Positions 19,959 through 55,565 of a stretch of DNA of 64,000 bases are shown here, in pieces. Within the stretch, counting starts at the first letter, position 1. Each line of letters starts with the position of its first letter. Source of the DNA: a virus (taxonomy: Duplodnaviria > Heunggongvirae > Uroviricota > Caudoviricetes); the IMG/VR virus record IMGVR_UViG_3300037466_002980, positions 234,811 through 298,810 of that record; one strand, 5' to 3'. The position numbers and the translations under genes are program-made. The notes beneath the pieces are model-generated. The model searched no databases, was not told where the DNA came from, and worked only from the letters and a program-made list of their open reading frames with translations.

Positions 19959-19967
19959 GATATTCTC

Positions 19968-20747: not shown

Positions 20748-20793
20748 ATGCTTTCAGCCGCAACCTTTTTTACAATTAGTTACGGCTGAATGG

Positions 20794-21078: not shown

Positions 21079-21080
21079 TC

Positions 21081-21278: not shown

Positions 21279-21292
21279 GACTTTCTCCTAAA

Positions 21293-23571: not shown

Positions 23572-23641
23572 CCAACTCTCCTGCTGTTGATGCTATTATT
23601 TTAGCAGAATTATTTCAGATGTCTATTGTTTTTACACCCGC

Positions 23642-23914: not shown

Positions 23915-23959
23915 AATTCTCTCCTTGAGATGTCCACAGGCCGACCAGGCAGTACGAGG

Positions 23960-24175
23960 TCAATCGCGCATCAGGCCTTGAAAGGAATTCCGCATGGATT
24001 GAAGTGAAGCATCGAATATGGAGTCGATTTCTTCCTTCATTGCTTCGTTTGCATCATCCGATGGAAGATTGAGTGTTGGTCTCGCATGGACTGTTCGAGC
24101 CTTCTGCCCGATGAGATTACCTTCGTTATCGACAACCGTCATTGAAACGATCACTCTGAAATCTTTGGTAGCCAT
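23960..24175 (-). CDS. hypothetical protein
   Basis: 71 aa. Confidence 0.65.
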   Translation of the reverse strand: MATKDFRVIVSMTVVDNEGNLIGQKARTVHARPTLNLPSDDANEAMKEEIDSIFDASLQSMRNSFQGLMRD

Positions 24176-24817: not shown

Positions 24818-25428
24818 ACCAGCAGGATGTCTTTCATGGCCTGGATTGCGACCATGTTGTCCAGGGAGATGACGCGCACCACGACATCGTGGAACACGCC
24901 ATTTGTTTTGTTCTCGACGAACATCGGAGGTTCCAGGAGCTTCTTCGCTTCTGCAGGCGTCAGGTGCCCTGCCACGAAGTTCTTGTCCACAAGCTGGTTG
25001 TTGTGGAGATACACACTTTCCGCCCCGTTATACATAGCGAAAAGATAGTGCTGCTCCTGCTTCGTCTTGTGGCGCACCAAACTGAAGCAGTCCTCGAGGT
25101 GCTCGAACCAGTTTTCGCTGGATTCGAATTTCTTGATCTCTGCCGGCGTGTTGATGCCCAACTTCTTGGCGGAACGCTTCACAGCATCTTCGTACACGCT
25201 GTTGAAGTCGTGAATGTGATTGAACAGTTGCACATTCGCAACGGTGATCTTGCGGATGTCGACATCCTTGAATGCCGCAGCCGTCTTCACAGGGGTTACC
25301 TGCGTGATTTGTGCGAAAGTGGTGCCGTGGAGTGCGGCTAGCAGATTCTTCACATCCACGGGAAGCACCCGGGTGGAGTTCTGCTGGGCCTTCAGCGCAA
25401 GCTGGGCTTCGCTAAGTGTGAGTTGCAT
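24814..25428 (-). CDS. conserved phage hypothetical protein
   Basis: 204 aa, GGAGG SD, promoter 25457-25505. Confidence 0.8.
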   Translation of the reverse strand: MQLTLSEAQLALKAQQNSTRVLPVDVKNLLAALHGTTFAQITQVTPVKTAAAFKDVDIRKITVANVQLFNHIHDFNSVYEDAVKRSAKKLGINTPAEIKKFESSENWFEHLEDCFSLVRHKTKQEQHYLFAMYNGAESVYLHNNQLVDKNFVAGHLTPAEAKKLLEPPMFVENKTNGVFHDVVVRVISLDNMVAIQAMKDILLV

Positions 25429-25867
25429 TAAGCACCTCCGTTGTTGTGATGTTGTAACTATAGTATCAACGGAATTGTTTGTCTACCGCTTTTACAACCT
25501 GTTACAACAAGAAAAAGCACCGAAGGTCTCGAACCTTCCTTCTGGGTTACGCCAGAGGCCGCACTCTTCGTTGTACTTCCGACGAGCAATGCTTTTTGCC
25601 TTCCTCTACCAGGGTATCGGCATGCCGCGGTGGTTTACCCGCGACACATTATTCACCCTGTTTCTCAGTATCACTGCGGCCTCTGGAGAAGTTAGCCCCC
25701 TTCGGCGTTTGTGGACTGAGCGAGCTATTGTGGTCGATTGTCGTACCAGACTTTCAACCTTATTGCCCCTAGGCACCCCCAACTTTCGTTGAGTTAAAAG
25801 TACCTGGTACTGCCTATAAAAGAAGTCAAAAAGCACTCTTGCACACAGCAGCTATTATATACGGCCC

Positions 25868-26083
25868 CTATATGCTGTCAACTTGTTTTGGAGGCTTTAT
25901 CCAACATCCTCCCTTGCATTCAGGACATGGAATGATATCACCAAATCCGCTTGCATCATCCAGCCCGGATCCATTACAGTGAGTGCAACGAACAAAGCCC
26001 ATGCGCTTGAATGCTTCTTCATTGGATTTTTCAGCGGCCTTTCGAGCTTCATCTCCAATGATGTCGAGTGTCTTGTCATTCAT
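25868..26083 (-). CDS. small protein with DnaJ-type CxxCxGxG zinc motif
   Basis: CTHCNGSG...CPECKGG. Confidence 0.65.
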   Translation of the reverse strand: MNDKTLDIIGDEARKAAEKSNEEAFKRMGFVRCTHCNGSGLDDASGFGDIIPCPECKGGCWIKPPKQVDSI

Positions 26084-26465
26084 GTGTATATAATAGTACC
26101 AATCCTTTCCAATGTCAACCATTATTACACTTTGTTACACCTACGACGATCTCGGCCGCAAGTGATCAAGGCTCTGACCCTTAATCCCGAGACTAGCACA
26201 GACCTCGTGATATAAGCTGGACCTTACTAGTGATGTTAGAGATGCACCAAAGTTTATGCATACAAAAGTTGTATCAAAATATGAATTTCAAATTTAAATC
26301 TCGGATTTGGAATAAAGATTGTTAGAGAAACCTTTTAACGTAAGATCTAAATTTAAGACTAGCGAGCTTACCTCGGACTTATTTTAAATAACTCGAATAA
26401 AAAGGCGAGATCTTTCCGGCCACAAGAAAAGGAACAACTCCAAAGAATTGTCCCTTTCAGAAGGA

Positions 26466-27341
26466 TTACAGAGGAGGAAGTCCCATACGTGCCCGGACGA
26501 AGGGGTCGGTGTATTGCGGTTGTTTGGCTTCCGTGACGGTTGTGTTCGATTTCACGGCGCCGGTGGTGGTCGATACTCGACGGTAGGCTTCTGCAACGGT
26601 GGCGTTCATCTTGAGAAGCTCACGTGCAGCCATTCGGTCTGCTTCCGTGCCCAAGGCCGTCATGCTGTTCGCGTAATAGCGAAGGTTGCAGTCTTCGTCC
26701 TTGATGGTTGTTCCGAATGAAACACCGAACCCAACCCCTTGTGCACCACCGCTCGAAGAGCCCAGGCAGGTTCCGTTGGTTGCCTGCAAGGCCGGTGCGT
26801 ATGCCGTGTTCACCGGTGCTCGCGGATTGTTGATGTTCACTGCCGTGTCGTTGTTCACAGTGTTGCCGCCACTGTTGGAAGTGGAAGCACCGGTTGTGTT
26901 CGTATTCGTGTTGGTGACAGCACCCGTTGTTGCAGTGGAAGCACCGGTTGTGTTCGTATTCGTGTTGGTGACAGCACCAGTGGATGCTGTTGCGTTTCCG
27001 CCGGTTGAGCTGGAGGTGGAAGACGAATTGCCGCTGCCGTTGATGCTCTGTTGTTGGCCTTGCAATTGTCCTTGCGTATTGCTGTTCGTGTTGTTGCTCG
27101 TGTTGCTGTTCGCATTGGTGATAATGCTGGCAACACTGCCGCCACTGCCGCCGTTTCCACCATTGCCTCCACCACCACCGTTTCCGCCGTTTCCACCGTT
27201 GCCTCCGGCACCGCCGCCGTTGCCGCAGTTATTGGTGCAGCCCGCACCATTGGTACCACCCGAGCCCGGAGGATCTGCATACGCAACCCCGACAGCAAGT
27301 GCCATGATTGCCACACACAGATAGTTCTTCTTGAACTTCAT
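26466..27341 (-). CDS. exported Gly/Asn/Thr-rich protein with Cys-containing C-terminal domain
   Basis: Signal peptide ending AYA, GGNGGNGG tract, TCLGSSSGGAQGVGFGVSFG...DCNLR. Confidence 0.8.
   Translation of the reverse strand: MKFKKNYLCVAIMALAVGVAYADPPGSGGTNGAGCTNNCGNGGGAGGNGGNGGNGGGGGNGGNGGSGGSVASIITNANSNTSNNTNSNTQGQLQGQQQSINGSGNSSSTSSSTGGNATASTGAVTNTNTNTTGASTATTGAVTNTNTNTTGASTSNSGGNTVNNDTAVNINNPRAPVNTAYAPALQATNGTCLGSSSGGAQGVGFGVSFGTTIKDEDCNLRYYANSMTALGTEADRMAARELLKMNATVAEAYRRVSTTTGAVKSNTTVTEAKQPQYTDPFVRARMGLPPL
26880..26978. repeat. 54-bp-period in-frame direct repeat (45 bp identical)
   Basis: agtggaagcaccggttgtgttcgtattcgtgttggtgacagcacc at 26880 and 26934. Confidence 0.9.
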
Positions 27342-27674
27342 TGCTTTCTCCAAAATTGACATCCGGCTACATTATTGTTCAAAGAACAATCCAGCAGATT
27401 GCCGGAAAACATCTACTGGTTCATGTACCATTGTGGTCATTATAATTGTATCGTGACACGTGTCAAGCGATTTTTGAAGATCTTGGAACCATAAGAAAAG
27501 GGCGGTGCCCACCTGGGTCGCCCTTTACCGGGAGTGGCAATTGCGACAGTCCTTACTTCATCGGCGATCTCCTTTAAAGGAAATGAAGCGTTACGGAAGT
27601 GACCGAATCGATGTACACCTGCGCAACGTCTTTATTATTATATATGTTGTGGTTCCTGTCAAGTGACTTTTTGA

Positions 27675-27977
27675 TTATTTCCGGAGAGCCAGAAGCTTTT
27701 GTGTCATCTCGACAGCCATTTGTTTCCCGTTGTGCTTATCGGGATGGCAGAGCATCAACAATTTCTTGATTTCTTCTTCTGTGAATCCGGATACCTTGAT
27801 CCTCTTCTCGATCTTTACCACCCTGGGTGGCTTTCTCATTTCCTTTTCAAGAAGATCCCCCAGGTCATGAAGCCTATGGGAAAGATAGACACTTCTTTCT
27901 TGCAACATGGCATTCTCTCCCATGAGTTTTAGGTTTTCATCGGCGAGGGCATCATACTTTTTCTTTCGCACGAACAT
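27675..27977 (-). CDS. coiled-coil protein with minimal C-terminal J-domain-like HPD motif
   Basis: IKKLLMLCHPDKHNG; AGGAG SD. Confidence 0.6.
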   Translation of the reverse strand: MFVRKKKYDALADENLKLMGENAMLQERSVYLSHRLHDLGDLLEKEMRKPPRVVKIEKRIKVSGFTEEEIKKLLMLCHPDKHNGKQMAVEMTQKLLALRK

Positions 27978-28236
27978 TATGGATCTCCTCAATCTTTTCA
28001 ACCACACGCATTTGTTTCTCGGCCACGCGGAATGCTTCGCAGACGAGAATTTCCGCGGCACTGTCTGGAGACTCTTTCAACCTTCGTCGAAGATCTTTTG
28101 CCCAGGCTTTGTGCTTTTCGGGAAGATTGTCTTCGTATTCTCGGATCTGTCTTTCCAGGCGGATGACGATGAGCCGTTGTTCGATTCTGGCTCGAATCCG
28201 ATGTTGAAAGTAATTCAGCTTGTGTATTAATCCCAT
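27952..28236 (-). CDS. hypothetical protein
   Basis: Start MGLIHK. Confidence 0.55.
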   Translation of the reverse strand: MGLIHKLNYFQHRIRARIEQRLIVIRLERQIREYEDNLPEKHKAWAKDLRRRLKESPDSAAEILVCEAFRVAEKQMRVVEKIEEIHNVRAKEKV

Positions 28237-28285
28237 GCACACATTATAACATCTGTGCATGGGACCACAAGCACTGAAAGGATTG

Positions 28286-28750
28286 TCAGGCACCCCAGTG
28301 AACGCCGGGTCTGCCGAATTGTGAAGGCATCGGAGCCACCGTGAGTGCATTGGGACACGGTGTTGCGAGAACGACTTCCCTGGGTGGCTCCACAAGGGTA
28401 ATGGTACAGCGGTCCTCGAGCTTCTCGAAGGTTGTCTGGGAGACAGGTCCGGAGAACGGTCGTCCTCCGATTTTCCGCATCCGCTTCACAGTGGTTCTCG
28501 GTGCGGCAATTCCAACAATGACTTCCTCGATAGGAGACCATTGTGTCTTGAAAGTATAACAGGTGCTGCTTCTGTTATCCTTCATACTTATTGCCTGTTC
28601 AATATCGGATGTTGTTGCACCCCAGAAATCCCCGTTCCAGAAGGAATAATGGGCCTGCTCTTCTCCTGGCCAGAAACGACCATATAGCTGGTCGAAATGT
28701 CTTATCTTGTAAACACCCGCTTGGATGGGAAAACCATCATTCCATTGCAT
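28286..28750 (-). CDS. hypothetical protein (N-terminal P..GVY module shared with 57247-57816)
   Basis: MQWNDGFPIQAGVYKIR; GGAG SD. Confidence 0.65.
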   Translation of the reverse strand: MQWNDGFPIQAGVYKIRHFDQLYGRFWPGEEQAHYSFWNGDFWGATTSDIEQAISMKDNRSSTCYTFKTQWSPIEEVIVGIAAPRTTVKRMRKIGGRPFSGPVSQTTFEKLEDRCTITLVEPPREVVLATPCPNALTVAPMPSQFGRPGVHWGA

Positions 28751-28760
28751 GTTTCGCTCC

Positions 28761-29066
28761 TTAGAAGTCCTTGACAATGATGTTGTTGTTGGAATCCCGT
28801 TTGTAGGAACGCACAAGGCGACCTTGGCGAGCATCGATGACGAGTGCCTGTGCGTACTCGCCCGAATTGAGCTCTGACCTGGCACAGTGTGAAGCACAAT
28901 GCCCGTATGCACGTTCCAGGCTATCCGTGCTGCCACTGGTGTCCTGTTTGGTGAAGTCCCCCACGATGTGGTAGTAATACATGCGGTAACGCTTGGTAGC
29001 GTTCCTGTTGCGTTTCACAGTGGGGACACCACGTAGTTGAAACTTGCGAATTGCCGCTGTCGCCAT
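28761..29066 (-). CDS. hypothetical protein
   Basis: 101 aa, SD present. Confidence 0.7.
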   Translation of the reverse strand: MATAAIRKFQLRGVPTVKRNRNATKRYRMYYYHIVGDFTKQDTSGSTDSLERAYGHCASHCARSELNSGEYAQALVIDARQGRLVRSYKRDSNNNIIVKDF

Positions 29067-29246
29067 TTCCTCTAGCTCCTTAGTATTTCCGCCAACCCGA
29101 TATCGGCGAATAAATCTTCAAGGGAGTATCGCCATGATAAACGATACATTCGAATCCGACTGTCACAGCAGCACGCTCCGCCGCTTGAAGCGTGTCGAAT
29201 GCGTCCTGTGTGAAATATTGGAAGTTGATAAGGTAGATACGGTATT

Positions 29247-29480
29247 TCACGATTCCACCTTCTCCACAAGGATAGTGATCTTCGCAGTGGCAATGCTTTT
29301 GTCTGACCACCAATCCATTTCCGCAATGATGCTCTTGGAAACGGTGTTCATCACTGCATCCAGCATTGTTTCTTTGTCTGACACCCTGAAGTTCTCTTCA
29401 GGATCGTTTTCGTTTATCACGTTAGCTGTTGCGAGCCATGGCATATATAATATTCCTATCACTATCGCATTACCATACAT
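29247..29480 (-). CDS. hypothetical protein
   Basis: ORF downstream of promoter 29479-29527. Confidence 0.55.
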   Translation of the reverse strand: MYGNAIVIGILYMPWLATANVINENDPEENFRVSDKETMLDAVMNTVSKSIIAEMDWWSDKSIATAKITILVEKVES

Positions 29481-29697
29481 AGTATGTTAGAATTACTTCA
29501 ACGTCAACTATTGTTACACTCTCTTACATCCAATTCCAACTCATATTCATCTCGGGTCCATGTTTTGGCATTCGGCTTTATATAAACACCCGAGGCGAAT
29601 ACCTATTCTACATATTCTTACAAATCCTAGAATACTGTATGAAAATCTTCCGCCTCGTAGTTACAGTAAGGCTGAGTTGATTCGAAGGAACGAAATT

Positions 29698-29746
29698 GTA
29701 ACAGGTTGTAAAAACTGATTGACACGCATACCCACCCTATATATAG
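29698..29746 (+). promoter_or_regulatory. sigma70-like promoter with GTAA-N6-GTAA element
   Basis: GTAACAGGTTGTAA-N7-TTGACA-N17-TATAGT. Confidence 0.8.
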
Positions 29747-29783
29747 TAGAGCTACTCGCAACCCACTTAAGAAAGGAAACGCG

Positions 29784-30503
29784 ATGGACAAGGGTATTCG
29801 CCCGGCGATGAACGCCAAATTCCTGGAACTGCTCCCGAAACGAGCATCCGGGGAACTCACCAACACGAAGTTCCGTGCAGAAGTCATGGGCTTCGGGCAG
29901 AAGGAATACGGCATTTCGGTGGCCAGCGCGGCAACGCACTACAACCATGCTTTCAAGGAAGCACGGAAGGCGGCAGCCGCAGGTGACGAAACGCTGCAGA
30001 AGCAACTGGAAGGCCTGGGCCGTCCGGAAGACAAGAAAGGCGGGCGCAAGAAGAAGGCCGCTGCTCCTGCGACTCCGAATGCTGCAACGACCATCCAGGC
30101 AAATCCGGCTGCTGCATCCGGCACCGACACGGCGGCCAACGATGCGCAGGGTGCGGTGACCACCACTGCAGAAGCCGGCGGCGAAACTGCTGCGGGCACT
30201 GCGCAGGAAGGCCAGACCATCAACACCGAAGAAGTCGGCAAGGTGGATGTGGTGCTTGGCGATCAACCCGAGCAAGCAGCGAACGAAACGGTGGCAACCG
30301 ACGTGGTCCAGGAAGTCAGCATCGACGAACAGTCGGTGTGGGCCGTGAAGAAGCCGGGACCGATGGGCATCGGGGAAGGCAAGATCATCGCAGAAAAGCT
30401 CACGAAAGCTGCTGCGCTCGAACTGATCGACCGCGCCGCCAAGAGCAAGAAGGGCAAGCTGGAACTGGTGGCCCCGAAGCAGGAACCTGCTGAAGCTGCC
30501 TAA
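29784..30503 (+). CDS. 'DKGIR/EDKKGGRK' family protein copy 2
   Basis: MDKGIR...SAATHYNHAF...EGLGRPEDKKGGRKKK, Ala/Thr-rich linker; GC-rich codons. Confidence 0.85.
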   Translation: MDKGIRPAMNAKFLELLPKRASGELTNTKFRAEVMGFGQKEYGISVASAATHYNHAFKEARKAAAAGDETLQKQLEGLGRPEDKKGGRKKKAAAPATPNAATTIQANPAAASGTDTAANDAQGAVTTTAEAGGETAAGTAQEGQTINTEEVGKVDVVLGDQPEQAANETVATDVVQEVSIDEQSVWAVKKPGPMGIGEGKIIAEKLTKAAALELIDRAAKSKKGKLELVAPKQEPAEAA

Positions 30504-30525
30504 TCCGGGGCATTCACAAGGAAGT

Positions 30526-30547
30526 GGGGCCAAGTGCCCCTTTTCTT
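30526..30547 (+). terminator. rho-independent terminator
   Basis: GGGGC-CAAGT-GCCCC followed by TTTTCTT. Confidence 0.75.
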
Positions 30548-31054
30548 ATGGCCAGATGGTTCTCGGACGATCAGAAGTGGCAGGCCCGAGACAATAGAAT
30601 CCCGTACATACTACAGCTATATTCTCTACTGAATATACATAGCCCTACGACGGTTTTACAGCCCCTACAAGCGTTTTATTTCTAGGGGGTAAGGGTCGAG
30701 CAGCTGGCAGGTATTCTAGGGGCCTCGATCTTCATAAAAGAATAGGTAATACCTTCTCATTAAGGTTACTGCACAGTATTTTATTCCCACGCGAGGAGAA
30801 ACCCTACATTCTCTCGGAATACTCTACGGCACCTCGCCGAGGCCGGGTTTCAACCAAGACCTCGCCCCGAGAACGAATCCCTCAAATACCTTTTCGATGA
30901 AACCCACAATTTCGATTTTCTGTATTCAGTTTTCAAGACTTTCACCTTTCGGATTTCTCAAGTTTCGAGTTTCGGTTATCGTGAATTTCACCTTTCACTA
31001 TACCGGATTTCAATCTCGCATTTGATTGTGGCTAAGCCCGAGCCTATTACGAGA

Positions 31055-31759: not shown

Positions 31760-32041
31760 TTATATAGGACCCATATTACAACTATGCGTTAAGCCAAACA
31801 TTATGCCAAGAAAGACAACCGCACTAAGACTGTATCCAGAATATGTTATTATTGAGGTATAGGTGGAACCACCTTCCTTTTCATATATACGATCAAATAT
31901 CCTAGGCTTGAATCCTATCACTATACCAAATTCATCACACGAATACCATATCTTACATCCCACTGGAGAAATCCAATGGTTTTCCCTTTTCTCGTATGTA
32001 TAGTAGAGTTTCTTGTTCTTGAAGTATAGTTTCTTCTTCAT
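31760..32041 (-). CDS. array B protein
   Basis: Motif match. Confidence 0.7.
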   Translation of the reverse strand: MKKKLYFKNKKLYYTYEKRENHWISPVGCKIWYSCDEFGIVIGFKPRIFDRIYEKEGGSTYTSIITYSGYSLSAVVFLGIMFGLTHSCNMGPI

Positions 32042-32331
32042 AGTAGTTCATCATTATAGTAATAGAATTTCCCAACGAATATGCCTAGAAATACATATCC
32101 ACGAACAGTATGAGCTTCATTAGAAGCACCCGATAGATAATCTTTTAATTCAGTTGTATCACTGAAATGTTTGTATAGAAAAGGTAAGAATCCTATAGTA
32201 AGTCCAAATTCAACTAGAGCTACACATATCTTACATTCGGAGAATCTAGAAATCCACCCAGTCCACTTTCTAAATAGAATAACATATAGCTTTCCATCTT
32301 TAAATTGTATTCTAGGGTTTTCTTTTATCAT
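32038..32331 (-). CDS. array B protein
   Basis: Motif match. Confidence 0.7.
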   Translation of the reverse strand: MIKENPRIQFKDGKLYVILFRKWTGWISRFSECKICVALVEFGLTIGFLPFLYKHFSDTTELKDYLSGASNEAHTVRGYVFLGIFVGKFYYYNDELL

Positions 32332-32591
32332 ACAAGTGGTTTGGATCTAAATAGAAAAGTGAATATGATTGATAATCTAAAAATAGTAATTCCAAGATAT
32401 TGAGGAGCATTTATTATTGAAACAGATTTATTAGAATATATAGATGTATCCCAATAAAGTAGAATTGTTTTTAGACGTAAACCATGAGCTACCGTGCAAT
32501 TCTTATCCTTATAAATGAAATATTCATTTTTCCACCAATAGGTAATATATATCCTACTAGGCATTGTATTGATAAATCTCGATGATATCAT
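32328..32591 (-). CDS. array B protein
   Basis: Motif match. Confidence 0.7.
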   Translation of the reverse strand: MISSRFINTMPSRIYITYWWKNEYFIYKDKNCTVAHGLRLKTILLYWDTSIYSNKSVSIINAPQYLGITIFRLSIIFTFLFRSKPLV

Positions 32592-32836
32592 AGTGGTTCA
32601 GCTTTCTCAGCAATAGTTCCAAATGCAAGAACGAAATTAAATAAAAGGAATCCTTTGAGTGAATTGTTTATTACTCCAAACAGTAATCCATGGTGTCTAT
32701 AGAATCCTATTAGAACACTTCTATGGGCAGGTTGATAGTAAATCTTACATTCATCAATGGGATGAATATAATATTCTCCTTTCGTAGACCAAAGAGAAAT
32801 ATAGACTCTTTTATCAATTTTGTAGAGAATCTTCAT
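32588..32836 (-). CDS. array B protein
   Basis: Motif match. Confidence 0.7.
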   Translation of the reverse strand: MKILYKIDKRVYISLWSTKGEYYIHPIDECKIYYQPAHRSVLIGFYRHHGLLFGVINNSLKGFLLFNFVLAFGTIAEKAEPL

Positions 32837-32842
32837 AGTCTT

Positions 32843-33124
32843 CTATTCAACTGGATTCCACGTTGCTATTCTACTAATTCCAATCATTACTCCGAGAATA
32901 ATAATTCCGCGAATATAACATCTACCACGATAGAAACTATAATCTATATTGTAGTATTCATAGCTACTGATTATCTTAGGTTCGAATCCCAATACAAAGG
33001 AATACTTTTCAAAGAACGACCATACTCTGCATTCTTCGTAGTTGTTAATTTCATACCTGCAATATTCGGTTGTATCTATATAGAGTTTACCGTTGTTGGT
33101 GTATGTTTTAGGAAAGAATTTCAT
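32843..33124 (-). CDS. array B protein
   Basis: Motif match. Confidence 0.7.
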   Translation of the reverse strand: MKFFPKTYTNNGKLYIDTTEYCRYEINNYEECRVWSFFEKYSFVLGFEPKIISSYEYYNIDYSFYRGRCYIRGIIILGVMIGISRIATWNPVE

Positions 33125-33127
33125 AGT

Positions 33128-33358
33128 CTAAACTTCCCTTCCCCTAGCTATTTTTCTGAGAGAAATTAGATATCCGAATATAAGAATTGTATCAGTAGAA
33201 TGAAGTTCATAGTCTGTCTTTTCAATTGAAATTGTATATTCTCTTAAATTCTCAAATATCATACAGTCATATTCTTTTCTTATTTTATAGGTTCTTCGCC
33301 AGAAATAGGTGAAATAATGTGTATATCCAAAGCGACGATAGAATCTTGGTTTGATCAT
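33128..33358 (-). CDS. array B protein
   Basis: Motif match. Confidence 0.7.
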   Translation of the reverse strand: MIKPRFYRRFGYTHYFTYFWRRTYKIRKEYDCMIFENLREYTISIEKTDYELHSTDTILIFGYLISLRKIARGREV

Positions 33359-33600
33359 AGTTTGCCAGCGTGCCCACGATAAGTGAATCCAATGTCAAGT
33401 CCGAATACATTGATTCCCTTAAAGGAACCTTGTTTTCTAAGTCTAAGGTTCTTTTTCTTAAATTTATAGACTCCAATTACGAATTGTCTTTTATAAGTGG
33501 TGAACCAAATTTCACAATTTTGATTTGCAGAAATCCAATAGTGCGTTCTCCACCACAGAGTGATGTAGAGTGTTTTGTAACCGAATTCAATTATTTTCAT
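33355..33600 (-). CDS. array B protein
   Basis: Motif match. Confidence 0.7.
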   Translation of the reverse strand: MKIIEFGYKTLYITLWWRTHYWISANQNCEIWFTTYKRQFVIGVYKFKKKNLRLRKQGSFKGINVFGLDIGFTYRGHAGKL

Positions 33601-33842
33601 ATTGGATCGGCAGCGTAGGCGCGAGATATTCTAAAGAATCCAAAGAGTTTTTTTGTTGAATACAATTCTCTTGCACTTGGAGTATCTTCTTTTCTAAAAT
33701 CTCCTATTCTAAGATAGAACCTTTCTTCGACCTTGTAAATTCTACAATAAGATCTACTATTTCCGATATGATGTGAATATCTTTTTAAGAAAAGAATGTA
33801 GAGAGAATTGTATTGAATTATGAAGATGTCTTTGAATTTCAT
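33597..33842 (-). CDS. array B protein
   Basis: Motif match; start MKFKD. Confidence 0.7.
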   Translation of the reverse strand: MKFKDIFIIQYNSLYILFLKRYSHHIGNSRSYCRIYKVEERFYLRIGDFRKEDTPSARELYSTKKLFGFFRISRAYAADPI

Positions 33843-34102
33843 ACTGGATCGGATCTCCAAGACCAAAGCAATCCTACTATGATTCCGAAGAAGGTGAAGG
33901 AAATGACGTCATTTTCTCCATAGGAGATATCTTCTATTCCTTTGAATAGGTCTTTGTCAAATCCAATGAAGAAGGCCTGCTCATCAAGTTCGGTCCAAAC
34001 TGTGAAATCCTTGAATTCGTTGATCCAATACATTCTGCTTCTTTGGAAGGTGAAATAGATCTTCTTTCTATAGAAGTAGATGATTGGGGATTCTTTAATC
34101 AT
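33839..34102 (-). CDS. array B protein
   Basis: Motif match. Confidence 0.7.
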   Translation of the reverse strand: MIKESPIIYFYRKKIYFTFQRSRMYWINEFKDFTVWTELDEQAFFIGFDKDLFKGIEDISYGENDVISFTFFGIIVGLLWSWRSDPV

Positions 34103-34305: not shown

Positions 34306-34499
34306 TGTTGGGGGATTCCTTTTTTAGACCTTCTTGACGTCGAGAGAGATCCATGCGTTTTCTTCGGTTTTAGGTTCGTCCACGAAATGGTAATTATCTA
34401 AACATTCTATCCATTAGTATTCTAAGTAGATACAATACAACGAATATAGCTAGTATTTTCAGTATCATATTTGAATAAGTTTTAAGATTTCCCTGTAAT

Positions 34500-34688
34500 T
34501 CATTTGTTTTTCTTGAAACTATTCACTGTGATATGCCCGATGAACAGCAACAGGAAGCAGGGTAAGAACACGATAGTTTTCCATGGTTTCCAGTGAGTAT
34601 TCGTAGGCGACCTATACACATAGTAACCAGTATATATAGTTCCTAAAATGATGTAAAGTGATAATATAGCCAGGATGGTGAAAAACAT
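34500..34688 (-). CDS. small membrane protein
   Basis: Two TM segments. Confidence 0.65.
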   Translation of the reverse strand: MFFTILAILSLYIILGTIYTGYYVYRSPTNTHWKPWKTIVFLPCFLLLFIGHITVNSFKKNK

Positions 34689-34697
34689 GATTTTCCT

Positions 34698-34832
34698 TTA
34701 ACGATGATAGAGTAAGAAGAAAAGGAGTAGGTCATTGTCATTGTTGTTTTTGGTGGGTTGGTCTTGGTTGGATTGACCTTGTGTGCAACCAAGAGTGAAC
34801 AGTAGCAACAGTAGGATTATTGGCTTATTCAT
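34698..34832 (-). CDS. 44 aa putative lipoprotein (not in ORF track)
   Basis: MNKPIILLLLLFTLGC lipobox-like; start coupled to the last array C gene. Confidence 0.55.
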   Translation of the reverse strand: MNKPIILLLLLFTLGCTQGQSNQDQPTKNNNDNDLLLFFLLYHR

Positions 34833-35160
34833 ATATTTCTTCTGCAAGTTCTAACCAATTGATAAAAAGTTGTTTCCATTCTTTTATGTTTTTTGAGTTT
34901 TTCACTGCATCAATAAAAGAATAACCTGCCATTTCAATATTAGAATTTCTATTACTGATATGTTTCAGATAAGTTCTTTCAGTGCTGTACCAATCTTTAT
35001 CAGAGAATTCTGGCCGCATTGAAGTGTAATCCACCATGAAATTTCTGTAGGCAAATTCATATGCTTCATCGAAGGTGCCGCCAGCATGATAAGTTGGAAA
35101 TTCTCTTAGGTCAATTCCGTATTTTAATTTCCATTTAAGGATACTATATTCTTCATTCAT
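34825..35160 (-). CDS. array C member 18 (KWKLKYG subtype)
   Basis: Motif match. Confidence 0.85.
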   Translation of the reverse strand: MNEEYSILKWKLKYGIDLREFPTYHAGGTFDEAYEFAYRNFMVDYTSMRPEFSDKDWYSTERTYLKHISNRNSNIEMAGYSFIDAVKNSKNIKEWKQLFINWLELAEEIYE

Positions 35161-35443
35161 ATATTTCCTCTGTTATTTTAATCCAATGGTTAAAATGATA
35201 GCGCAGTTCCTTAATGGATAATGCATGTTTATTCTTAAGCCAAATAACTTCTTCATCCAAGTCATCTTCAGTTTCAAACATACATTCGGTATCGTGGTCT
35301 GCACTTTCAACTACTGGAAAGTCGTGGTAATAAAGATCCCACAAGAAGTTGTAGGAAATGAATTTTATATATTCATCTAGAAATGAATTTGATAAGCAAT
35401 CTGGAAATCTTCCATATTTGAGTACAAAATAGGTATTATTCAT
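35153..35443 (-). CDS. array C member 17
   Basis: Motif match. Confidence 0.85.
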   Translation of the reverse strand: MNNTYFVLKYGRFPDCLSNSFLDEYIKFISYNFLWDLYYHDFPVVESADHDTECMFETEDDLDEEVIWLKNKHALSIKELRYHFNHWIKITEEIYE

Positions 35444-35744
35444 ATATGTTTTCTGCGATGTCTAACCAGTAGAAAAATTGATCTTTAATATCTTCGAGGG
35501 ATATCTTAAAGATTTCTTATGAAAGGCCTAGTTCTTCCAGAACAATTTCCCTGTCATTGAATAGATTCTCTGTATCATTATTGGTATATTTAATTGCATA
35601 GCCACCCGGATAGATATCGTCGAAATATATGTAATTCAATTCCCAATAGAGATTATAGATTGTGAAGTTTAGAATTTCACTCTTGGTTTCGTTGATACAG
35701 TCGGGAAAGTCTCCGTATTTTAATTTGAATATTACTTTATTCAT
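35436..35744 (-). pseudogene. array C member 16 with in-frame TAA at 35517-35519
   Basis: Frame continues after the stop as EIFKISLEDIKDQFFYWLDIAENIYE*. Confidence 0.8.
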
Positions 35745-36084
35745 ACATTTCCTTTGCAATGTCTAACCACATATTGAAATGTTCTTCAATTATTTCAATT
35801 GGTGCCTGGAAAATATCATTGCATTCTTTGAGTTCTCCTAGAATACCTTCGCGATGTTCGAAATGTTCATGGGTATCCTCTTCGGTATATTGGATGTGTC
35901 TGGAATTTATTTTATCAGCACGGGTATAATGATAACCATTACGATAATAATCTATTCTTGTGAAATAGAAATAGTTTAAATCCCAATAGAAATTATAGAT
36001 AGCGAAATTTAATATTTCGTTATCTTTCCTTTCTATGCATTCAGGAAAGTTTCCGTATTTGAGTTTGAATATTACCTTATTCAT
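35737..36084 (-). CDS. array C member 15
   Basis: Motif match. Confidence 0.85.
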   Translation of the reverse strand: MNKVIFKLKYGNFPECIERKDNEILNFAIYNFYWDLNYFYFTRIDYYRNGYHYTRADKINSRHIQYTEEDTHEHFEHREGILGELKECNDIFQAPIEIIEEHFNMWLDIAKEMYE

Positions 36085-36388
36085 ATATGCTTTCTGTAAT
36101 GTCAATCCAGGCGAAGAATTCTTCTTTTACTTCTTCAAAATTTTCTGCATAATCATATGGGAGTCCTACTCCAATGCTGGAATTAAGGTATTTAAAAATA
36201 TATTCTTCATTGGATCGATATACGGATTCGAAACCCCACAACACACTTAGGAAATTAGCAATAGTGAATTTAATTTTTTCGTCACATTCATTTCTAAGAA
36301 GATTTCTAATACTAACACCAAAATTATCGTACGTAGAAAAATCTAGATTGTATTTCAATATAAGAATAATTTCGTTCTCTTTATTCAT
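36077..36388 (-). CDS. array C member 14 (LKY.LDF subtype)
   Basis: Motif match. Confidence 0.85.
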   Translation of the reverse strand: MNKENEIILILKYNLDFSTYDNFGVSIRNLLRNECDEKIKFTIANFLSVLWGFESVYRSNEEYIFKYLNSSIGVGLPYDYAENFEEVKEEFFAWIDITESIYE

Positions 36389-36695
36389 ACATTTCTTCTG
36401 CAAACTCTAACCAATATTCAAAATGTTCTTTAACATTTTCTTTAGAAGTTTTGAAGATATCTTCACAGCCACGAATATCTACTAAAATATTATTTCGTGA
36501 CGCCATTCCTTCTTCTGTTTCCTCCGTCGCAAGAGAAAGTCTATATTCGGTAAAAGGATTGCAGTAGTATTGATAATTCAAATCCCACATGAAATTGTAG
36601 ATAGCGAAATTTAGAGTTTCATTTCTAGTTTCTAATAGACATTCAGGATATGTTCCGTATTTTAATCTGAATGCCAATTCGTCCACGTTATTCAT
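36381..36695 (-). CDS. array C member 13
   Basis: Motif match. Confidence 0.85.
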   Translation of the reverse strand: MNNVDELAFRLKYGTYPECLLETRNETLNFAIYNFMWDLNYQYYCNPFTEYRLSLATEETEEGMASRNNILVDIRGCEDIFKTSKENVKEHFEYWLEFAEEMYE

Positions 36696-36993
36696 ATATT
36701 TCCTCTGCTATCTTAACCCATGTGAAGAAATCCTCTTCAACATCCTCTATTGTGGTTTTAGAAACTTTGGCAAAATCTATGAATTCACTTCTGTCGAATC
36801 CTATGGTACAGAAACGCGCGGCATGTGTGTCGGGAGTCTCTGTATCTGATTTTTGTTCATGATATGCATAATCCCAGAGAAAATTATAAATTATGAATTG
36901 CAATTTTTCGTCTGTTCTAATTTTATCTTCGGGGAAAGCTTCTTGCAAACTCTTATATTTCAATTTGAAAATTAATTTTAATTCTTTATCCAT
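36688..36993 (-). CDS. array C member 12
   Basis: Motif match. Confidence 0.85.
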   Translation of the reverse strand: MDKELKLIFKLKYKSLQEAFPEDKIRTDEKLQFIIYNFLWDYAYHEQKSDTETPDTHAARFCTIGFDRSEFIDFAKVSKTTIEDVEEDFFTWVKIAEEIYE

Positions 36994-37285
36994 ACATTTC
37001 CTCTGATATAATAATCCATTTATAGAATAATTGTTCAGCCTTCTTAAGAGAAATATTAGCCTCATCGATAAGATATCTAACTTCTTTTTCTAACATACTC
37101 ACATTATTCATGAAGAATGCTACATCCGGATCAATATATTCTGGTAAATGCTCATAAACGGTATGATGATGAGAAATTATATCCCATAAGAAATTATATA
37201 TAGCGAACTGTAACACTTCATCTTTTCCGTTGACTATGCAATCTGGAAAATTTCCATATTTCAATCTGAAGAAAAGTTTATTCAT
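36986..37285 (-). CDS. array C member 11
   Basis: Motif match. Confidence 0.85.
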   Translation of the reverse strand: MNKLFFRLKYGNFPDCIVNGKDEVLQFAIYNFLWDIISHHHTVYEHLPEYIDPDVAFFMNNVSMLEKEVRYLIDEANISLKKAEQLFYKWIIISEEMYG

Positions 37286-37598
37286 TGTAAATTTTTCCAG
37301 CAATTTCTACCCATCTATAGAAATCTTCTTCCATAATTTCAAACGGTATTCCATGACCTGAAAAAGGTCCGGAAAATATTCCCACTGTATCTTCGAAACT
37401 ATCTGTAGAATATACAACAACTTGACCATCAGAAAGGCTTATTGAATTTTCGGTATCAATATCATTGAATGATGTGTAATATAGAAATAACATATCCCAT
37501 GTGAAATTATAGGAAATGAAGTTTAATTCCTCATTTTCTGCATTCTTAGTCACGTATGGAAACTTTCCATATTTCAAATTAAAAAGAAATTTATGCAT
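37278..37598 (-). CDS. array C member 10
   Basis: Motif match. Confidence 0.85.
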   Translation of the reverse strand: MHKFLFNLKYGKFPYVTKNAENEELNFISYNFTWDMLFLYYTSFNDIDTENSISLSDGQVVVYSTDSFEDTVGIFSGPFSGHGIPFEIMEEDFYRWVEIAGKIYNE

Positions 37599-37953
37599 GG
37601 ATTTCTTCTGATATCAATAACCATTGTATGAATAGCTGTTTCCAATATTCTATTTTATCCTCATTATAATCATCTGGACGGATCATGTGATGATTCTTAT
37701 CAGCCGACATCCTATTGTTAGAGTGAATTTCCCATGCACGACCAGATCTATACCACTCGTTTTCATAAGAATACGTAGGAAGTTTAAGTGTATTCAGCGT
37801 TGATAGAAATGAACGATAATCTATCATGAAATTTCTATAAGCAAATTCATATATGTCATCTACACTTCCACCACCGTTATAGATTGGGAATGTATTGAAA
37901 TCAAGACCGTATTTCAATTTCCATTTAAGAAATTCTTGTCCCTTATTATTCAT
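37591..37953 (-). CDS. array C member 9 (KWKLKYG subtype)
   Basis: Motif match; closest to member 18. Confidence 0.85.
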   Translation of the reverse strand: MNNKGQEFLKWKLKYGLDFNTFPIYNGGGSVDDIYEFAYRNFMIDYRSFLSTLNTLKLPTYSYENEWYRSGRAWEIHSNNRMSADKNHHMIRPDDYNEDKIEYWKQLFIQWLLISEEIHA

Positions 37954-38266
37954 TGTATATCGTCTCGGTTATTCTAACCCATTCATAAAATATCTTTCTA
38001 AGATTTTCAGTGTTATCGGCGTGATGCGCCCATGAAAGTTCAACAATCAAGCCTTGTTTAATGCGACTGAAAATAAATGCTTCATTACTTCTAGTATGTC
38101 CTTCAAACCACCATGTTTCGGTTAGAAAATTAGCAAGTAAGAATTTCTTCTTTTCATCAAAATCCTCACTGTGGACAATATCTCCAATACTTTCATTTAT
38201 TGTTCTATAGGATGAGAAATTCATATCATATTTCAACATGAATATTAATTCGTCCATTTTATTCAT
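37946..38266 (-). CDS. array C member 8
   Basis: Motif match; closest to member 14. Confidence 0.85.
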   Translation of the reverse strand: MNKMDELIFMLKYDMNFSSYRTINESIGDIVHSEDFDEKKKFLLANFLTETWWFEGHTRSNEAFIFSRIKQGLIVELSWAHHADNTENLRKIFYEWVRITETIYNE

Positions 38267-38604
38267 AGCATTTCTTCTGTAATACTAATCCAATAGTTTA
38301 AATATTCTTCACAATCCTTAATCGGTAAATTAAGTCTTTCCTTGATTACATTCATATTGCGTTCAGCGGAATGTGCAGGATCCTTCGAATCCACGATATA
38401 TTCAATTGCCCTAGATGCTAATGTAACAGACTGAAAACTTAAGGCAGAAAATGTATCAAGATGAGTATTTTCAATTTTTGAATAATAAAGCCGTAACATA
38501 TCCCACATGAAATTGTACAGAATGAAATTCCAATGTTCGTCCTCATTGAAATGAAGACAACTTGGAAAATTTCCATATTTTAATTTATAGAATAGTTTAT
38601 TCAT
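38263..38604 (-). CDS. array C member 7
   Basis: Motif match. Confidence 0.85.
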   Translation of the reverse strand: MNKLFYKLKYGNFPSCLHFNEDEHWNFILYNFMWDMLRLYYSKIENTHLDTFSALSFQSVTLASRAIEYIVDSKDPAHSAERNMNVIKERLNLPIKDCEEYLNYWISITEEML

Positions 38605-38938
38605 ATATTTCTTTTGCTATATCTAACCATTCAAAAAAACATTCTTCTGCATCTTCCTTTGTGTAGATCTTTTCTTTAATATTGTGTATCATATCTTCAT
38701 AGAAATCGTCATTGGTTATATTTTCTAATATTGTTAAGGTCGAAGATTCGTTAGCTATTACCACTCCACCGTTCCAGGTGCTGCCAACCAACTGCAAATA
38801 TTGAATTAATTGAATTTCCCAATCAAAATTTAGAAAAGCAAACTTCAATAAATCATCCTCGTGATATTTCATTATTCGCAAGCATTCTGGAAAGGATCCA
38901 TATTTTAATATGAATGCTAGTTTATCTTGTTTATTCAT
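38597..38938 (-). CDS. array C member 6
   Basis: Motif match. Confidence 0.85.
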   Translation of the reverse strand: MNKQDKLAFILKYGSFPECLRIMKYHEDDLLKFAFLNFDWEIQLIQYLQLVGSTWNGGVVIANESSTLTILENITNDDFYEDMIHNIKEKIYTKEDAEECFFEWLDIAKEIYE

Positions 38939-39257
38939 TATAAATGCTTTCTGCTATCTGTACCCATTTAATAAAGTGATCACGATATTCTTCGCGAGAA
39001 TATGTTGGTACCTCATGAATAGTGCTTGGTGCCTTGGACATAGATAGAAATCTACTTAGATTTTCTGAAAATCTCCATTTCTGTTCTTCAGAATAATCAT
39101 CATGCCACCACATTGTGGTATCGAAAATATCCACATGGTAATTGGTAAATGCAAAAAAGAATATATCACTGTCTCCCCAGGCTTTCGTATATCTAGGAAA
39201 GATATCCATATCCCAGGTATATTTTAGTTTCATTGCTAATAGATCTTCTTTATTCAT
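38931..39257 (-). CDS. array C member 5
   Basis: Motif match. Confidence 0.85.
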   Translation of the reverse strand: MNKEDLLAMKLKYTWDMDIFPRYTKAWGDSDIFFFAFTNYHVDIFDTTMWWHDDYSEEQKWRFSENLSRFLSMSKAPSTIHEVPTYSREEYRDHFIKWVQIAESIYNE

Positions 39258-39585
39258 ATATTTCTTCTGCAATTTCAAACCAATAAAAGAAATGTTCTTC
39301 TAGTTCTTTCTTGGTTGTTACACCAAATTCAACAAATGTCTTAAAATCCTCTGAAAAATTCTGTATCCAATTATTATTAAAAGAAAATCTTCCATTCGCA
39401 TATCTATCAAGATCTCCCGGTCCCCTATAATCGATAGACATCAAGGGATTTTCGTTGATAATCTTATCTTCGAATCTCCGCCTAGAATCCCAGTAGGTAT
39501 TGTAGGCCGCGAAAATTATCTTATCATCGGAATGTACAAAATCGGGAAAATTTCCATATTTGAGTTTGAATATTAATCTATTCAT
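39250..39585 (-). CDS. array C member 4
   Basis: Motif match. Confidence 0.85.
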   Translation of the reverse strand: MNRLIFKLKYGNFPDFVHSDDKIIFAAYNTYWDSRRRFEDKIINENPLMSIDYRGPGDLDRYANGRFSFNNNWIQNFSEDFKTFVEFGVTTKKELEEHFFYWFEIAEEIYE

Positions 39586-39764
39586 AGAAGTCCAATTCCA
39601 ACTACAATCATAGGCGTGAATAGCGCAACCACAACTAAGAAAAGTATAATACCAACAATCAAGGACAGTACCTTATCACGAACATCCGTTGCAATGGATA
39701 TCGCAAGTCTAATAAGAACACCGACTCCAAACAGAATAAACAAGATTCCCCAAACTATATTCAT
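39582..39764 (-). CDS. unrelated 2-TM membrane protein inserted in array C
   Basis: Hydrophobic 60 aa, no array motif. Confidence 0.75.
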   Translation of the reverse strand: MNIVWGILFILFGVGVLIRLAISIATDVRDKVLSLIVGIILFLVVVALFTPMIVVGIGLL

Positions 39765-39773
39765 TTTTATTCC

Positions 39774-40130
39774 TTATTCATACATTTCTTCTGCAATCTC
39801 CATCCAAATATAGAAATGTTCTTCTAATTCTTTAATTGAAAAAATTTTTTGAGCATAAACCAGTATTCCCGCAATACAGGCTTTTCGTGACTCTTCGTAT
39901 TGTTCTAGAACCGTTATGAGGTTTATTGCATACGAATTTGCCATTTCGGGTAATTCTTCGGTCGACAATTGAATATAAGCTGAATCCATTAATATATCAT
40001 GATAATGGACGTCAAAGAAAAGGTTATATATTGAAAATAGTAATTCTTCAGGATATTCGCCTTTAATCAACATACAGTCAGGAAAATTTCCATGTTTCAA
40101 AACAAATGAAAGTTTGCTATAATTATCCAT
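39774..40130 (-). CDS. array C member 3
   Basis: Motif match. Confidence 0.85.
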   Translation of the reverse strand: MDNYSKLSFVLKHGNFPDCMLIKGEYPEELLFSIYNLFFDVHYHDILMDSAYIQLSTEELPEMANSYAINLITVLEQYEESRKACIAGILVYAQKIFSIKELEEHFYIWMEIAEEMYE

Positions 40131-40455
40131 ATATTTCTTCTGCTATTTCTGCCCATGTAAAAAATAGCTCTTCAGCATCCTTAACAGTAGCATCTACCGT
40201 TTCAGCAAAATTTATCCATTCTTGTCCTAGAAATAATCCATATTCGGAATATCGAGTTCCGTGATTAAAAGCTGCTTCATAAAGATTAAAATCAGTTCCT
40301 TGTGGATAGAAATTAAAATATGTAATCGCATAATCATACATAAAATTGAAAAGAATGAATTTTAATTTTTCGTTCTTTTTAACATTTTCTCTAAGAACAC
40401 AGTTTGGAAATTCACCATATTTGAGTGTGAACATTAATTTATTTTCTTTATTCAT
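40123..40455 (-). CDS. array C member 2
   Basis: Motif match. Confidence 0.85.
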   Translation of the reverse strand: MNKENKLMFTLKYGEFPNCVLRENVKKNEKLKFILFNFMYDYAITYFNFYPQGTDFNLYEAAFNHGTRYSEYGLFLGQEWINFAETVDATVKDAEELFFTWAEIAEEIYG

Positions 40456-40786
40456 AAATTCCTTCAGCAATCAATGCCCAACGATAGAAATGTTTTTTAA
40501 TTTTCTTAAGGTTCTTGAAACTGAGTGTCCTATTAACAGTATCTATGTCTTCTAAAAGTTTTCTGGTAGAGGAATTGTTATTGAAGTAATAGTAAATTGC
40601 CTTATCGGCTTCTTGTATAGGAAATTGAATGTTATAGAAGTCAAGAATTGTCCAATATGAATATATCAGATCCCACATGAAATTTGTTAGGATGAAATCC
40701 ATTTTATCATTTTTATGCCATTCTAGGCCACCTGGAAATTCACCATATCTTAGTTTCATCACTAATTCTAATTCTGATACTTTCAT
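40448..40786 (-). CDS. array C member 1
   Basis: Motif match. Confidence 0.85.
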   Translation of the reverse strand: MKVSELELVMKLRYGEFPGGLEWHKNDKMDFILTNFMWDLIYSYWTILDFYNIQFPIQEADKAIYYYFNNNSSTRKLLEDIDTVNRTLSFKNLKKIKKHFYRWALIAEGIYE

Positions 40787-41540: not shown

Positions 41541-42206
41541 TCAGATTTCTGTGATACAATCGTTCACAGAATTCAGAATTTCAGTCTTCTGTCCATTCAA
41601 TGATTCGATATATTCATTGAATATATTTTCTTCTTGTGTGAACGGTAACGGAAGTGGACTTGGTAACTTGTACGAATTTCCATACAGAAGATGGAAATCG
41701 AATGTCCACTTCTTATAATTACGAATGGTATCGTCCTTTCCAGTTATCTTATTGCGTATTCTTCTAGCCAGATAGTCCACTCTGTGGTTATTGACCACAC
41801 GTGAATGTGAACGTACTTTTATGAAACGTGAATGTTCGACATAATAGTAGACCTGATTGATAATGTCTTCATCGTATCGATGTTTCAGCAGTGTCTCTAT
41901 CCTTCGTTTGAATGTGTAGAACGAAGAACGATTTTGTCCTGTTCCTGCATTCCATTGATGGTTGGCACCTACTGTCAATTCATCATCCGTGTAAAACGAC
42001 GCTTGGTCGGCGGTAATTTGGTATGGTTGGATGAATTTTACCGCTTCAATTAGGGCAATTAATTCGTGGCATCCGGGAGCCCTAATTTCAAATGCATCGG
42101 CATGTTCGAGGATTTCGCCTTGATGATTTACGTGGATACCGAAAGAGGTAATGCTATTATGACTACCTGAAATTGTTGTTTCGGATCCGTCGTAATAGAT
42201 TATCAT
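41541..42206 (-). CDS. RNase H type I-like nuclease
   Basis: Catalytic D-E-D-D order: YYDGS, HELIAL, YTDDE, KVRSHS...NHRVDYLAR. Confidence 0.75.
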   Translation of the reverse strand: MIIYYDGSETTISGSHNSITSFGIHVNHQGEILEHADAFEIRAPGCHELIALIEAVKFIQPYQITADQASFYTDDELTVGANHQWNAGTGQNRSSFYTFKRRIETLLKHRYDEDIINQVYYYVEHSRFIKVRSHSRVVNNHRVDYLARRIRNKITGKDDTIRNYKKWTFDFHLLYGNSYKLPSPLPLPFTQEENIFNEYIESLNGQKTEILNSVNDCITEI

Positions 42207-42927: not shown

Positions 42928-43223
42928 TGAAATACACTCTTGTAAACTTCGGTTGAATTAACCTTTTCGGGTTCATTTTCTATTAACCATTTTAGACGTT
43001 CTCTGACCTCCGAATAGAATTGCGACATATTAGTCGAATCCCGGATCTTGATGTGTTTTAGAAAATCCTCGTATGTATCAATTGCGATAACAGTGGAAGA
43101 ACATGATCTTCTCTGAGCAACCTTCCAAGCCTCTTCTACTGAAGTGGCATCGAATCCATAGGTATTCATGTATAGATATTTTCCCGGCGATTCCGGAAAA
43201 TACAAGTATGCATTCCATTTCAT
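42924..43223 (-). CDS. hypothetical protein
   Basis: Start MKWNAY. Confidence 0.6.
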   Translation of the reverse strand: MKWNAYLYFPESPGKYLYMNTYGFDATSVEEAWKVAQRRSCSSTVIAIDTYEDFLKHIKIRDSTNMSQFYSEVRERLKWLIENEPEKVNSTEVYKSVFQ

Positions 43224-43257
43224 TGAAGACCTAATAGATAAATTTTTTTGAAAAAGG

Positions 43258-55561: not shown

Positions 55562-55565
55562 AATT

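Follow-up and report, generated by a model that had tools for sequence, protein, structure and literature searches.

What does a jumbo phage gain from eighteen tandem copies of one small protein, alike at both ends and different in the middle? The question is raised by array C, a run of 18 tandem genes on the minus strand at positions 34825-40786 of a 64-kb stretch of DNA, hereafter the window, which covers bases 234,811-298,810 of IMG/VR record IMGVR_UViG_3300037466_002980. This single record of 362,810 bp, with 36.4% guanine plus cytosine (GC), represents an uncultured metagenomic jumbo phage; it carries direct terminal repeats and its completeness is estimated at 100%. A first-pass annotation, made from the letters of the window, had read array C as an antibody-like library on a constant helical scaffold, expanding and contracting accordion-style. 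What it had observed is confirmed by our analysis, whereas its interpretation is partly supported. We suggest that array C encodes a lineage-specific family of small, acidic, aromatic-rich cytoplasmic proteins that may form a standing repertoire of binders, each copy binding a different target, a reading to which we give a probability of about 45%.

The 18 consecutive genes first described are all borne out, both as open reading frames (ORFs) and by a family hidden Markov model (HMM), which recovers 18 of 18 in the phage's own genome (E 5e-34 to 7e-18) among 21 copies in total. Their products measure 96-120 amino acids, start codons being taken as the ATG that fits the family N-terminus; in five genes this is an internal ATG and not the upstream TTG or ATG of the ORF listing. 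Eighteen serial ORFs of 100-120 codons in DNA of 32% GC, together with a ratio of non-synonymous to synonymous substitution rates (dN/dS) of 0.29 between strains, are not a chance pattern. The proteins are acidic, with a mean isoelectric point of 4.9 and a net charge between 0 and -14, aromatic residues are abundant in them (15-22%), and their sequences show no evident signal peptide or membrane-spanning segment. Several other paralog families are present in the phage genome, one of them with 28 members; array C is the second-largest family and the longest contiguous array.

No relatives of these proteins were found in the reference collections. Pfam-A gave no match above cut-off (best E 0.0065), PHROGs v4 nothing significant (best E 0.06), PADLOC-DB 2 and NCBIfam 20 stray single-member matches only, and a sequence search of the PDB no match at E<=10. 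A HMMER profile search of 1.84 billion (1.84e9) cluster representatives returned 18 matches, all of them the phage's own genes or strain variants, and a homolog search with the family alignment likewise retrieved own genes and strain variants only. Queries with gene 13 and with one distant paralog had no tblastn match in 50,697 phage records. Nothing was obtained either by megablast of the array against phage records, by searching viral contigs with genes 13 and 18 and the RNase H-like gene flanking the array, or by searching metagenome contigs with that flank. About 60 IMG/VR contigs carry a large terminase roughly 80% identical to that of the phage, among them three complete genomes of 364-385 kb. 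The family is absent from all three, whereas the same model, as a positive control, finds the 21 copies in its own genome; the RNase H-like flank gene was not found in these three genomes either. Since the profile, tblastn and relatives' searches are all negative, the family is, within the reach of HMMER, limited to a single phage lineage. The earlier statement that no known family fits therefore holds, and the proposed HMM survey of distribution and copy number yields a single-lineage family with 18- and 13-gene forms. Three distant paralogs (121, 121 and 125 amino acids) lie outside the window, at genome positions 13145-14683 (contig L005) in a region of replication genes, with a 145-residue Cys-rich ORF between the second and the third; for them too no homologs were found elsewhere, a homolog search with one of them returning only the query itself and tblastn against phage records nothing.

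The motifs LKYG.FP.C, F..YNF.WD and W..I[AT]EE.YE had been quoted as kept by every copy. In their strict forms they occur in only 7, 7 and 4 of the 18 genes, respectively, and they are universal (18/18) only as the degenerate cores L[KR][YH], F...N and [FL]..W..[ILF][ATS]. The central segment differs in length among copies and is essentially unalignable, in agreement with the first description. Synonymous codons vary freely at conserved residues (CTC, CTA, TTA and TTG for the Leu of the LKY motif, TAT and TAC for its Tyr), so that the N-terminal motif is selected as protein and not as DNA; a DNA-level role of the LKY-coding stretch, considered as a candidate, was ruled out on these codons. The recurring subtypes noticed at first are real, with amino acid identities of 45% between genes 9 and 18, 42% between 8 and 14, 46% between 13 and 15 and 55% between 15 and 16. 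In the tree, only 8+14 and 9+18 are well supported as clades, and branches measure about 1 substitution per site. Amino acid identity among paralogs ranges from 20 to 55% (median 32%, maximum 55%), and the DNA repeats within the array are 60-77% identical, none of them near-identical. Judged from these divergences, the duplications in the array are all old.

A shared architecture is predicted by AlphaFold2, which was run on paralog-only alignments for two members, genes 11 and 15. Gene 11 was modelled with a predicted local distance difference test score (pLDDT) of 89.7, a predicted template modelling score (pTM) of 0.82 and six helices, and gene 15 with the same helix order at pLDDT 86.0 and pTM 0.79. 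The order comprises a short N-terminal helix bearing (F/L)KLKY, a one-turn helix at FP.C, a long helix 3 bearing F..YNF.WD, helices 4 and 5, and a long C-terminal helix bearing F..W..IAEE.Y. The proteins are thus predicted to form a six-helix bundle, of which the N-terminal helix, helix 3 and the C-terminal helix would be the constant frame. The idea of a constant helical scaffold hence stands, as a prediction, for the shared fold and the conserved terminal helices of the two modelled paralogs. The variable segments, for which surface loops had been considered, are modelled mainly as two helices plus one loop: the variable region takes in helices 4-5, the last part of helix 3 and one loop, whose pLDDT in gene 15 is about 63.

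Comparison of these models with known structures gave no convincing match. Foldseek against PDB and BFVD had no match at E<=0.001, and the ESM Atlas gave template modelling scores of at most 0.50 when searched by shape and no usable match when searched by features. In the VIA wide structure search, the best Z was 7.2 for gene 11 (2kzc, of unknown function) and 5.0 for gene 15; both values, as well as the recurring rows for 2kzc, the ATPase zeta subunit 7vkv, pSK41 Cop 8dtq and KIX, fall within the helical background. Death-fold rows (Z 4.0-4.7) and XRE rows (Z 3.7-4.5) were listed for gene 11, all below the noise level that the tool states for helical models; gene 15 had no death-fold row, its best Z of 5.0 being again below that level. 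The death-fold and XRE helix-turn-helix leads were dropped, as they do not recur between paralogs and the proteins are acidic.

The genes are joined in an unusually regular manner. From the upstream end, all on the minus strand, they are gene 1 (40448..40786, 112 amino acids, the first copy), gene 2 (40123..40455, 110, starting at an ATG and overlapping gene 1 by 8 nt), gene 3 (39774..40130, 118), gene 4 (39250..39585, 111), gene 5 (38931..39257, 108), gene 6 (38597..38938, 113), gene 7 (38263..38604, 113, ending in EML* and sharing a 4-nt ATGA overlap with gene 8), gene 8 (37946..38266, 106, of the subtype of gene 14), gene 9 (37591..37953, 120, of the subtype of gene 18), gene 10 (37278..37598, 106), gene 11 (36986..37285, 99), gene 12 (36688..36993, 101, counted from MDKELK), gene 13 (36381..36695, 104), gene 14 (36077..36388, 103), gene 15 (35737..36084, 115), gene 16 (35436..35744), gene 17 (35153..35443, 96) and gene 18 (34825..35160, 111, the last copy). 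Gene 16 is broken by an in-frame TAA at 35517-35519: it reads ...LEELGLS-TAA-EIFKISLEDIKDQFFYWLDIAENIYE, a full-length copy with a single in-frame stop, whose predicted N-terminal product has 75 amino acids and whose C-terminal remnant stays in frame down to 35436. The copies end in the pattern ...W..(I/L)(A/T/S)E(E)(I/M)Y(E/G/NE)-stop, and 15 of the 17 junctions are 8-nt stop/start overlaps (ATG-N-AT-RA), mostly ATGAATAA, in which the same bases encode the upstream YE* and the downstream MNK; the two others are ATGA overlaps. Immediately before the junction ATG stands purine-rich GAAGAAAT or GAGGAAAT. As the copies share one strand and nearly all are joined by 8-nt overlaps, a classical layout for coupled translation inside an operon, they are most likely translated as one coupled operon. 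Within the array, neither promoter-like sites (49, vs 43.8 +/- 6.9 in shuffled sequence) nor terminator-like sites (5 vs 3.4 +/- 2.0) are enriched, and no RNA dataset with the array or with genes 9-13 is listed among the runs with matches.

Genes foreign to the family are also launched from array junctions. After gene 3, the junction holds a 4-codon stub, ATG-AAT-AAG-GAA-TAA (MNKE*, 39767..39781, minus strand), which looks like the vestigial start of an array gene. It is followed, between genes 3 and 4, by a non-family ORF for a 60-residue transmembrane mini-protein (39582..39764, minus strand), with its own AAGGA ribosome-binding site and a TGA stop that overlaps the start of gene 4 (ATGA). 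After gene 18, a 44-residue ORF (MNKPIILLLLLFTLGC..., 34698..34832, minus strand) starts at the array's ATGAATAA junction; its N-terminus is signal-peptide-like and weakly lipobox-like.

These junctions are also the places where the array changes. A second haplotype, contig L002 (41.9 kb, Joint Genome Institute 3300037471), is collinear and about 96% identical at the nucleotide level, with one structural difference in the array: a segment of 1,556 bp (34825..36380) that holds genes 14-18 is absent from it. The crossover lies inside TATGAATAA of the junction repeat. L002 keeps the ATG-TAT of gene 13 and continues directly with the sequence downstream of gene 18, which leaves gene 13, the final copy of this 13-gene haplotype, intact and coupled to an ORF beginning MNKP. 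Genes 14-18 are not recent copies of anything, and the event is therefore a deletion. Two further runs, X2 and X3, which belong to different studies, also have contigs with this joint, whereas the 18-gene form is represented by pieces in X3, X4 and X5 and by a 49.7-kb contig of another run with all 18 genes, the truncated gene 16 included; the array-bearing runs are soil and rhizosphere metagenomes. The array is hence not invariant across isolates, 18-gene and 13-gene forms co-circulating at about 96% nucleotide identity. Of the accordion-style dynamics first proposed, contraction is borne out by this one exact five-gene loss, whereas expansion is not, the copies being at most 55% identical in amino acids and near-identical DNA repeats being lacking. 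Apparent truncations of genes 7, 10 and 13 in L002 were rejected, as they reflect only start choices of the gene caller and the sequences are intact.

The two haplotypes have diverged unevenly. In genes 4, 5, 8 and 9 the share of differing sites is 5.2% (7.7% of nucleotides in gene 4 alone) vs 0.75% in the rest of the array (chi-square p about 1e-20), and the synonymous divergence (dS) of these four genes is raised as well, at 0.126 vs 0.019. Such a pattern suggests that two-gene blocks were exchanged with a more distant lineage, and speaks less for selection on the four genes. The array thus changes by recombination at conserved gene junctions, and the exchange of cassettes at a defined joint of 9-23 bp is supported. 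With one copy carrying a nonsense codon and a co-circulating haplotype lacking five copies, the set is partly dispensable. Outside the array, the RNase H-like gene upstream of it (window 41541-42206) has a high dS of 0.20, and at window 43000-43250 there are 80 mismatches in 250 bp against L002 in surroundings otherwise 96-98% identical, which suggests a local allelic replacement.

Selection between the haplotypes acts to conserve the proteins. The dN/dS of 0.29 for all array copies compares with 0.18 in flanking genes; within the array it is 0.24 in the conserved ends and 0.35 in the variable middle, a difference that is not significant. The array, its variable middle included, is under purifying selection between strains, and we infer that each specific middle is preserved by selection. 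The notion of hypervariable, antibody-like variation is thus not sustained, as the middle is constrained at the population level (0.35 vs 0.24 in the ends). A diversity-generating retroelement-like locus is not apparent either, since there are no near-identical template and variable repeats and strain differences are not focused on the middle, a reverse transcriptase not having been specifically searched for.

How might such a set serve the phage? We propose that the copies would be co-expressed accessory proteins of one operon, that each would bind a different host protein (of defence or housekeeping) or a competitor protein through its own variable face, and that the repertoire would be kept by birth-and-death evolution and not as a rapidly amplifying accordion. 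A repertoire of binders or inhibitors is plausible in view of the traits that array C has in common with phage accessory and anti-defence genes: its products are small, acidic, dispensable and lineage-specific, and it sits in a long arm of small same-strand genes. Several points weigh against this proposal. That general resemblance is the sole ground of its functional part. No positive selection was detected between the two haplotypes, although some might be expected in a repertoire shaped by an arms race. As for the models, the high confidence of AlphaFold2 derives from a paralog-only alignment, while the single-sequence model of gene 11 in the ESM Atlas is poor (pLDDT 0.45), and the free surface ascribed to the variable helices is putative. 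Finally, polar residues are invariant (the Lys and Tyr of LKY and the Asn of F...N) and could mark one shared ligand or partner instead of many targets.

These invariant residues lead to the rival that survives best, although we hold it to be unlikely, namely that the constant N- and C-terminal helices dock all paralogs on one common phage or host partner as adaptors to a hub, while the variable helices recruit different cargo. The common docking element would then be the KLKY helix, which some 40 further mini-proteins of this phage carry at their N- or C-terminus. All 18 copies have L[KR][YH], a core that recurs genome-wide at the gene ends of many otherwise unrelated small ORFs, and invariant K, Y and N are unusual for a purely structural core. 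Against docking, the models place the KLKY helix within the bundle, at a pLDDT of about 87. The wider motif, (E/D)(E/D)x-hydrophobic-x-F-K-L-K-Y/W, stands at the very N- or C-terminus of some 40 small ORFs of otherwise unrelated families, for example at window 55352-55772, 56236-56792 and 10743-11344 and at genome 335-338 kb and 343-345 kb; by this position it always adjoins a gene junction. A Pfam scan of eight other mini-proteins with the motif returned nothing.

Slightly poorer odds are given to poly-immunity, in which the copies would be antitoxin-like proteins, each neutralising a different toxin domain of host abortive-infection effectors or of polymorphic toxins of competing bacteria or phages. 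Array C would then be akin to the tandem arrays of immunity genes in bacterial polymorphic toxin systems. Small, helical, acidic and diverged tandem paralogs under purifying selection are in line with it, and one study of the SUKH superfamily describes both tandem arrays of immunity paralogs and their recruitment by viruses (PMC3113570). However, no toxin gene adjoins array C, and its products have no similarity to immunity families in Pfam or NCBIfam. Poly-immunity is in fact a special case of the binder repertoire and inseparable from it in silico.

It is improbable that the array is a functionless or selfish expansion, in which the junction repeat drives duplication and supplies a signal for coupled translation with no benefit to the phage. 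The pseudogene among the copies, the five genes dispensable in nature and the unrelated passenger ORFs started by the junction would all agree with it. Yet dN/dS is 0.29 overall and 0.35 even in the variable middle, 17 intact frames have been kept despite about 1 substitution per site, and synonymous variation is found at conserved residues. Selfish persistence is thus disfavoured by the selection data.

In the internal proteins of T4, a conserved N-terminal peptide serves for targeting and the bodies are variable, and these proteins are encoded in plastic regions. As the phage belongs to a T4-related terminase group, the conserved N-terminus of array C could by analogy be a capsid-targeting sequence, with variable bodies packaged in the virion and delivered with the DNA. 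This is very unlikely: the alignments show no L/I-x-E cleavage motif after the N-terminal helix, that helix is modelled within the fold, and the structural module, at about 100-230 kb of the genome, is a long way from the array. Least probable of all, in our view, is that the KLKY frame docks to one hub such as a protease, a chaperone or a packaging factor so that 18 variable faces recruit different host proteins in the manner of eukaryotic F-box families.

The surroundings of array C are themselves rich in tiny genes. Directly downstream, at window 31760-34102, lies a second tandem array of about nine ORFs of 76-97 amino acids with a hydrophobic C-terminus and mostly ATGA overlaps, several of which have no non-synonymous change between the two haplotypes. 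Between the two arrays, window 34380-34832 holds three tiny ORFs of membrane or secreted type, including the 44-residue passenger, a 62-residue ORF with two hydrophobic segments and an AAGGA site, and possibly a hydrophobic peptide of 24 residues. Farther on, window 13000-31000 has about 50% GC vs 36% for the genome and is crowded on both strands with short overlapping ORFs, long ones being few. Window 2480-6963 (plus strand) includes a radical-SAM-like ORF (475 amino acids, below the Pfam cut-off) and a UDP-glucose/GDP-mannose dehydrogenase gene with about 67% DNA identity to marine cyanophage and pelagiphage genes.

As to the phage itself, its large terminase is of the T4 type, and among cultured phages the closest are PA5oct-like Pseudomonas phages, Atu_ph07 and the RaK2/121Q group, with matches that cover a quarter of the query at only about 64-67% nucleotide identity. 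The terminase gene lies outside the window, at genome 108149-110713 (L001:799-3363, minus strand), and encodes 854 amino acids, with a LAGLIDADG_3 domain at residues 288-344 upstream of Terminase_6N. In the roughly 60 relatives, the match spans query residues 1-854 in only about 1,572 nt, so that the terminase of the phage seems to bear an intein-like or homing-endonuclease insert of about 330 amino acids.

Array C is a new uncharacterised family, whereas the phenomenon of such expansions is already in the literature. Bacillus phage G has a zinc-ribbon family of about 35 copies, a lineage-specific expansion in a jumbo phage, and its authors set such expansions against a background of regulation or of conflict between host and virus (Iyer et al., 2021, PMC7824862). 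In both cases a single jumbo-phage lineage has tens of diverged copies of one small domain whose role is unknown; array C differs by its predicted fold, an acidic six-helix bundle, by the lack of any sequence relation and by its arrangement as one contiguous, translationally coupled operon. The hyperplastic regions of T4-type phages offer another parallel, as they undergo modular shuffling mediated by promoter early stem-loops (PeSLs), in which an early (sigma-70) promoter and a stem-loop terminator form an intergenic cassette, and the ORFans flanked by these cassettes are unrelated (Arbiol et al., 2010, PMC2839356). In both systems small nonessential genes are flanked by a short repeated motif in which insertions, deletions or replacements between near-identical phages have their endpoints; for array C, the crossover falls within TATGAATAA. 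Unlike PeSLs, the repeat of array C is a coding stop/start overlap with the conserved last codons of paralogs, and promoter-like and terminator-like sites are not enriched in the array. Translational coupling by overlapping stop and start codons of the same types (ATGA and 8-nt) is found in phage operons, but in array C the overlap fixes the protein ends of both neighbours and doubles as a recombination joint.

Genomic accordions are a further comparison. Poxvirus K3L is one example (Elde et al., 2012, cited in PMC13359090), and in phages, amplification of a counter-defence gene in T4 (bioRxiv 10.1101/2022.04.14.488369) and SegB-driven amplification (PMC13096335) were described. What array C has in common with these cases is a large DNA virus whose close relatives carry accessory genes in different numbers of tandem copies. 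Accordions, however, consist of recent near-identical copies that later collapse, whereas the copies of array C are 20-55% identical and the sole change seen is a deletion.

Jumbo phages devote a large share of their genomes to arrays of tiny proteins of unknown function, and array C provides a natural experiment on one of them: there are no relatives elsewhere, one predicted scaffold carries 17 intact and distinct variable faces plus one broken copy, and nature has supplied a five-gene deletion together with a supported exchange of cassettes at a defined joint. Should the copies turn out to bind or inhibit host proteins, they would be a source of many new small protein modulators, and array C would then exemplify how a phage keeps a standing repertoire, in contrast to a transient accordion.

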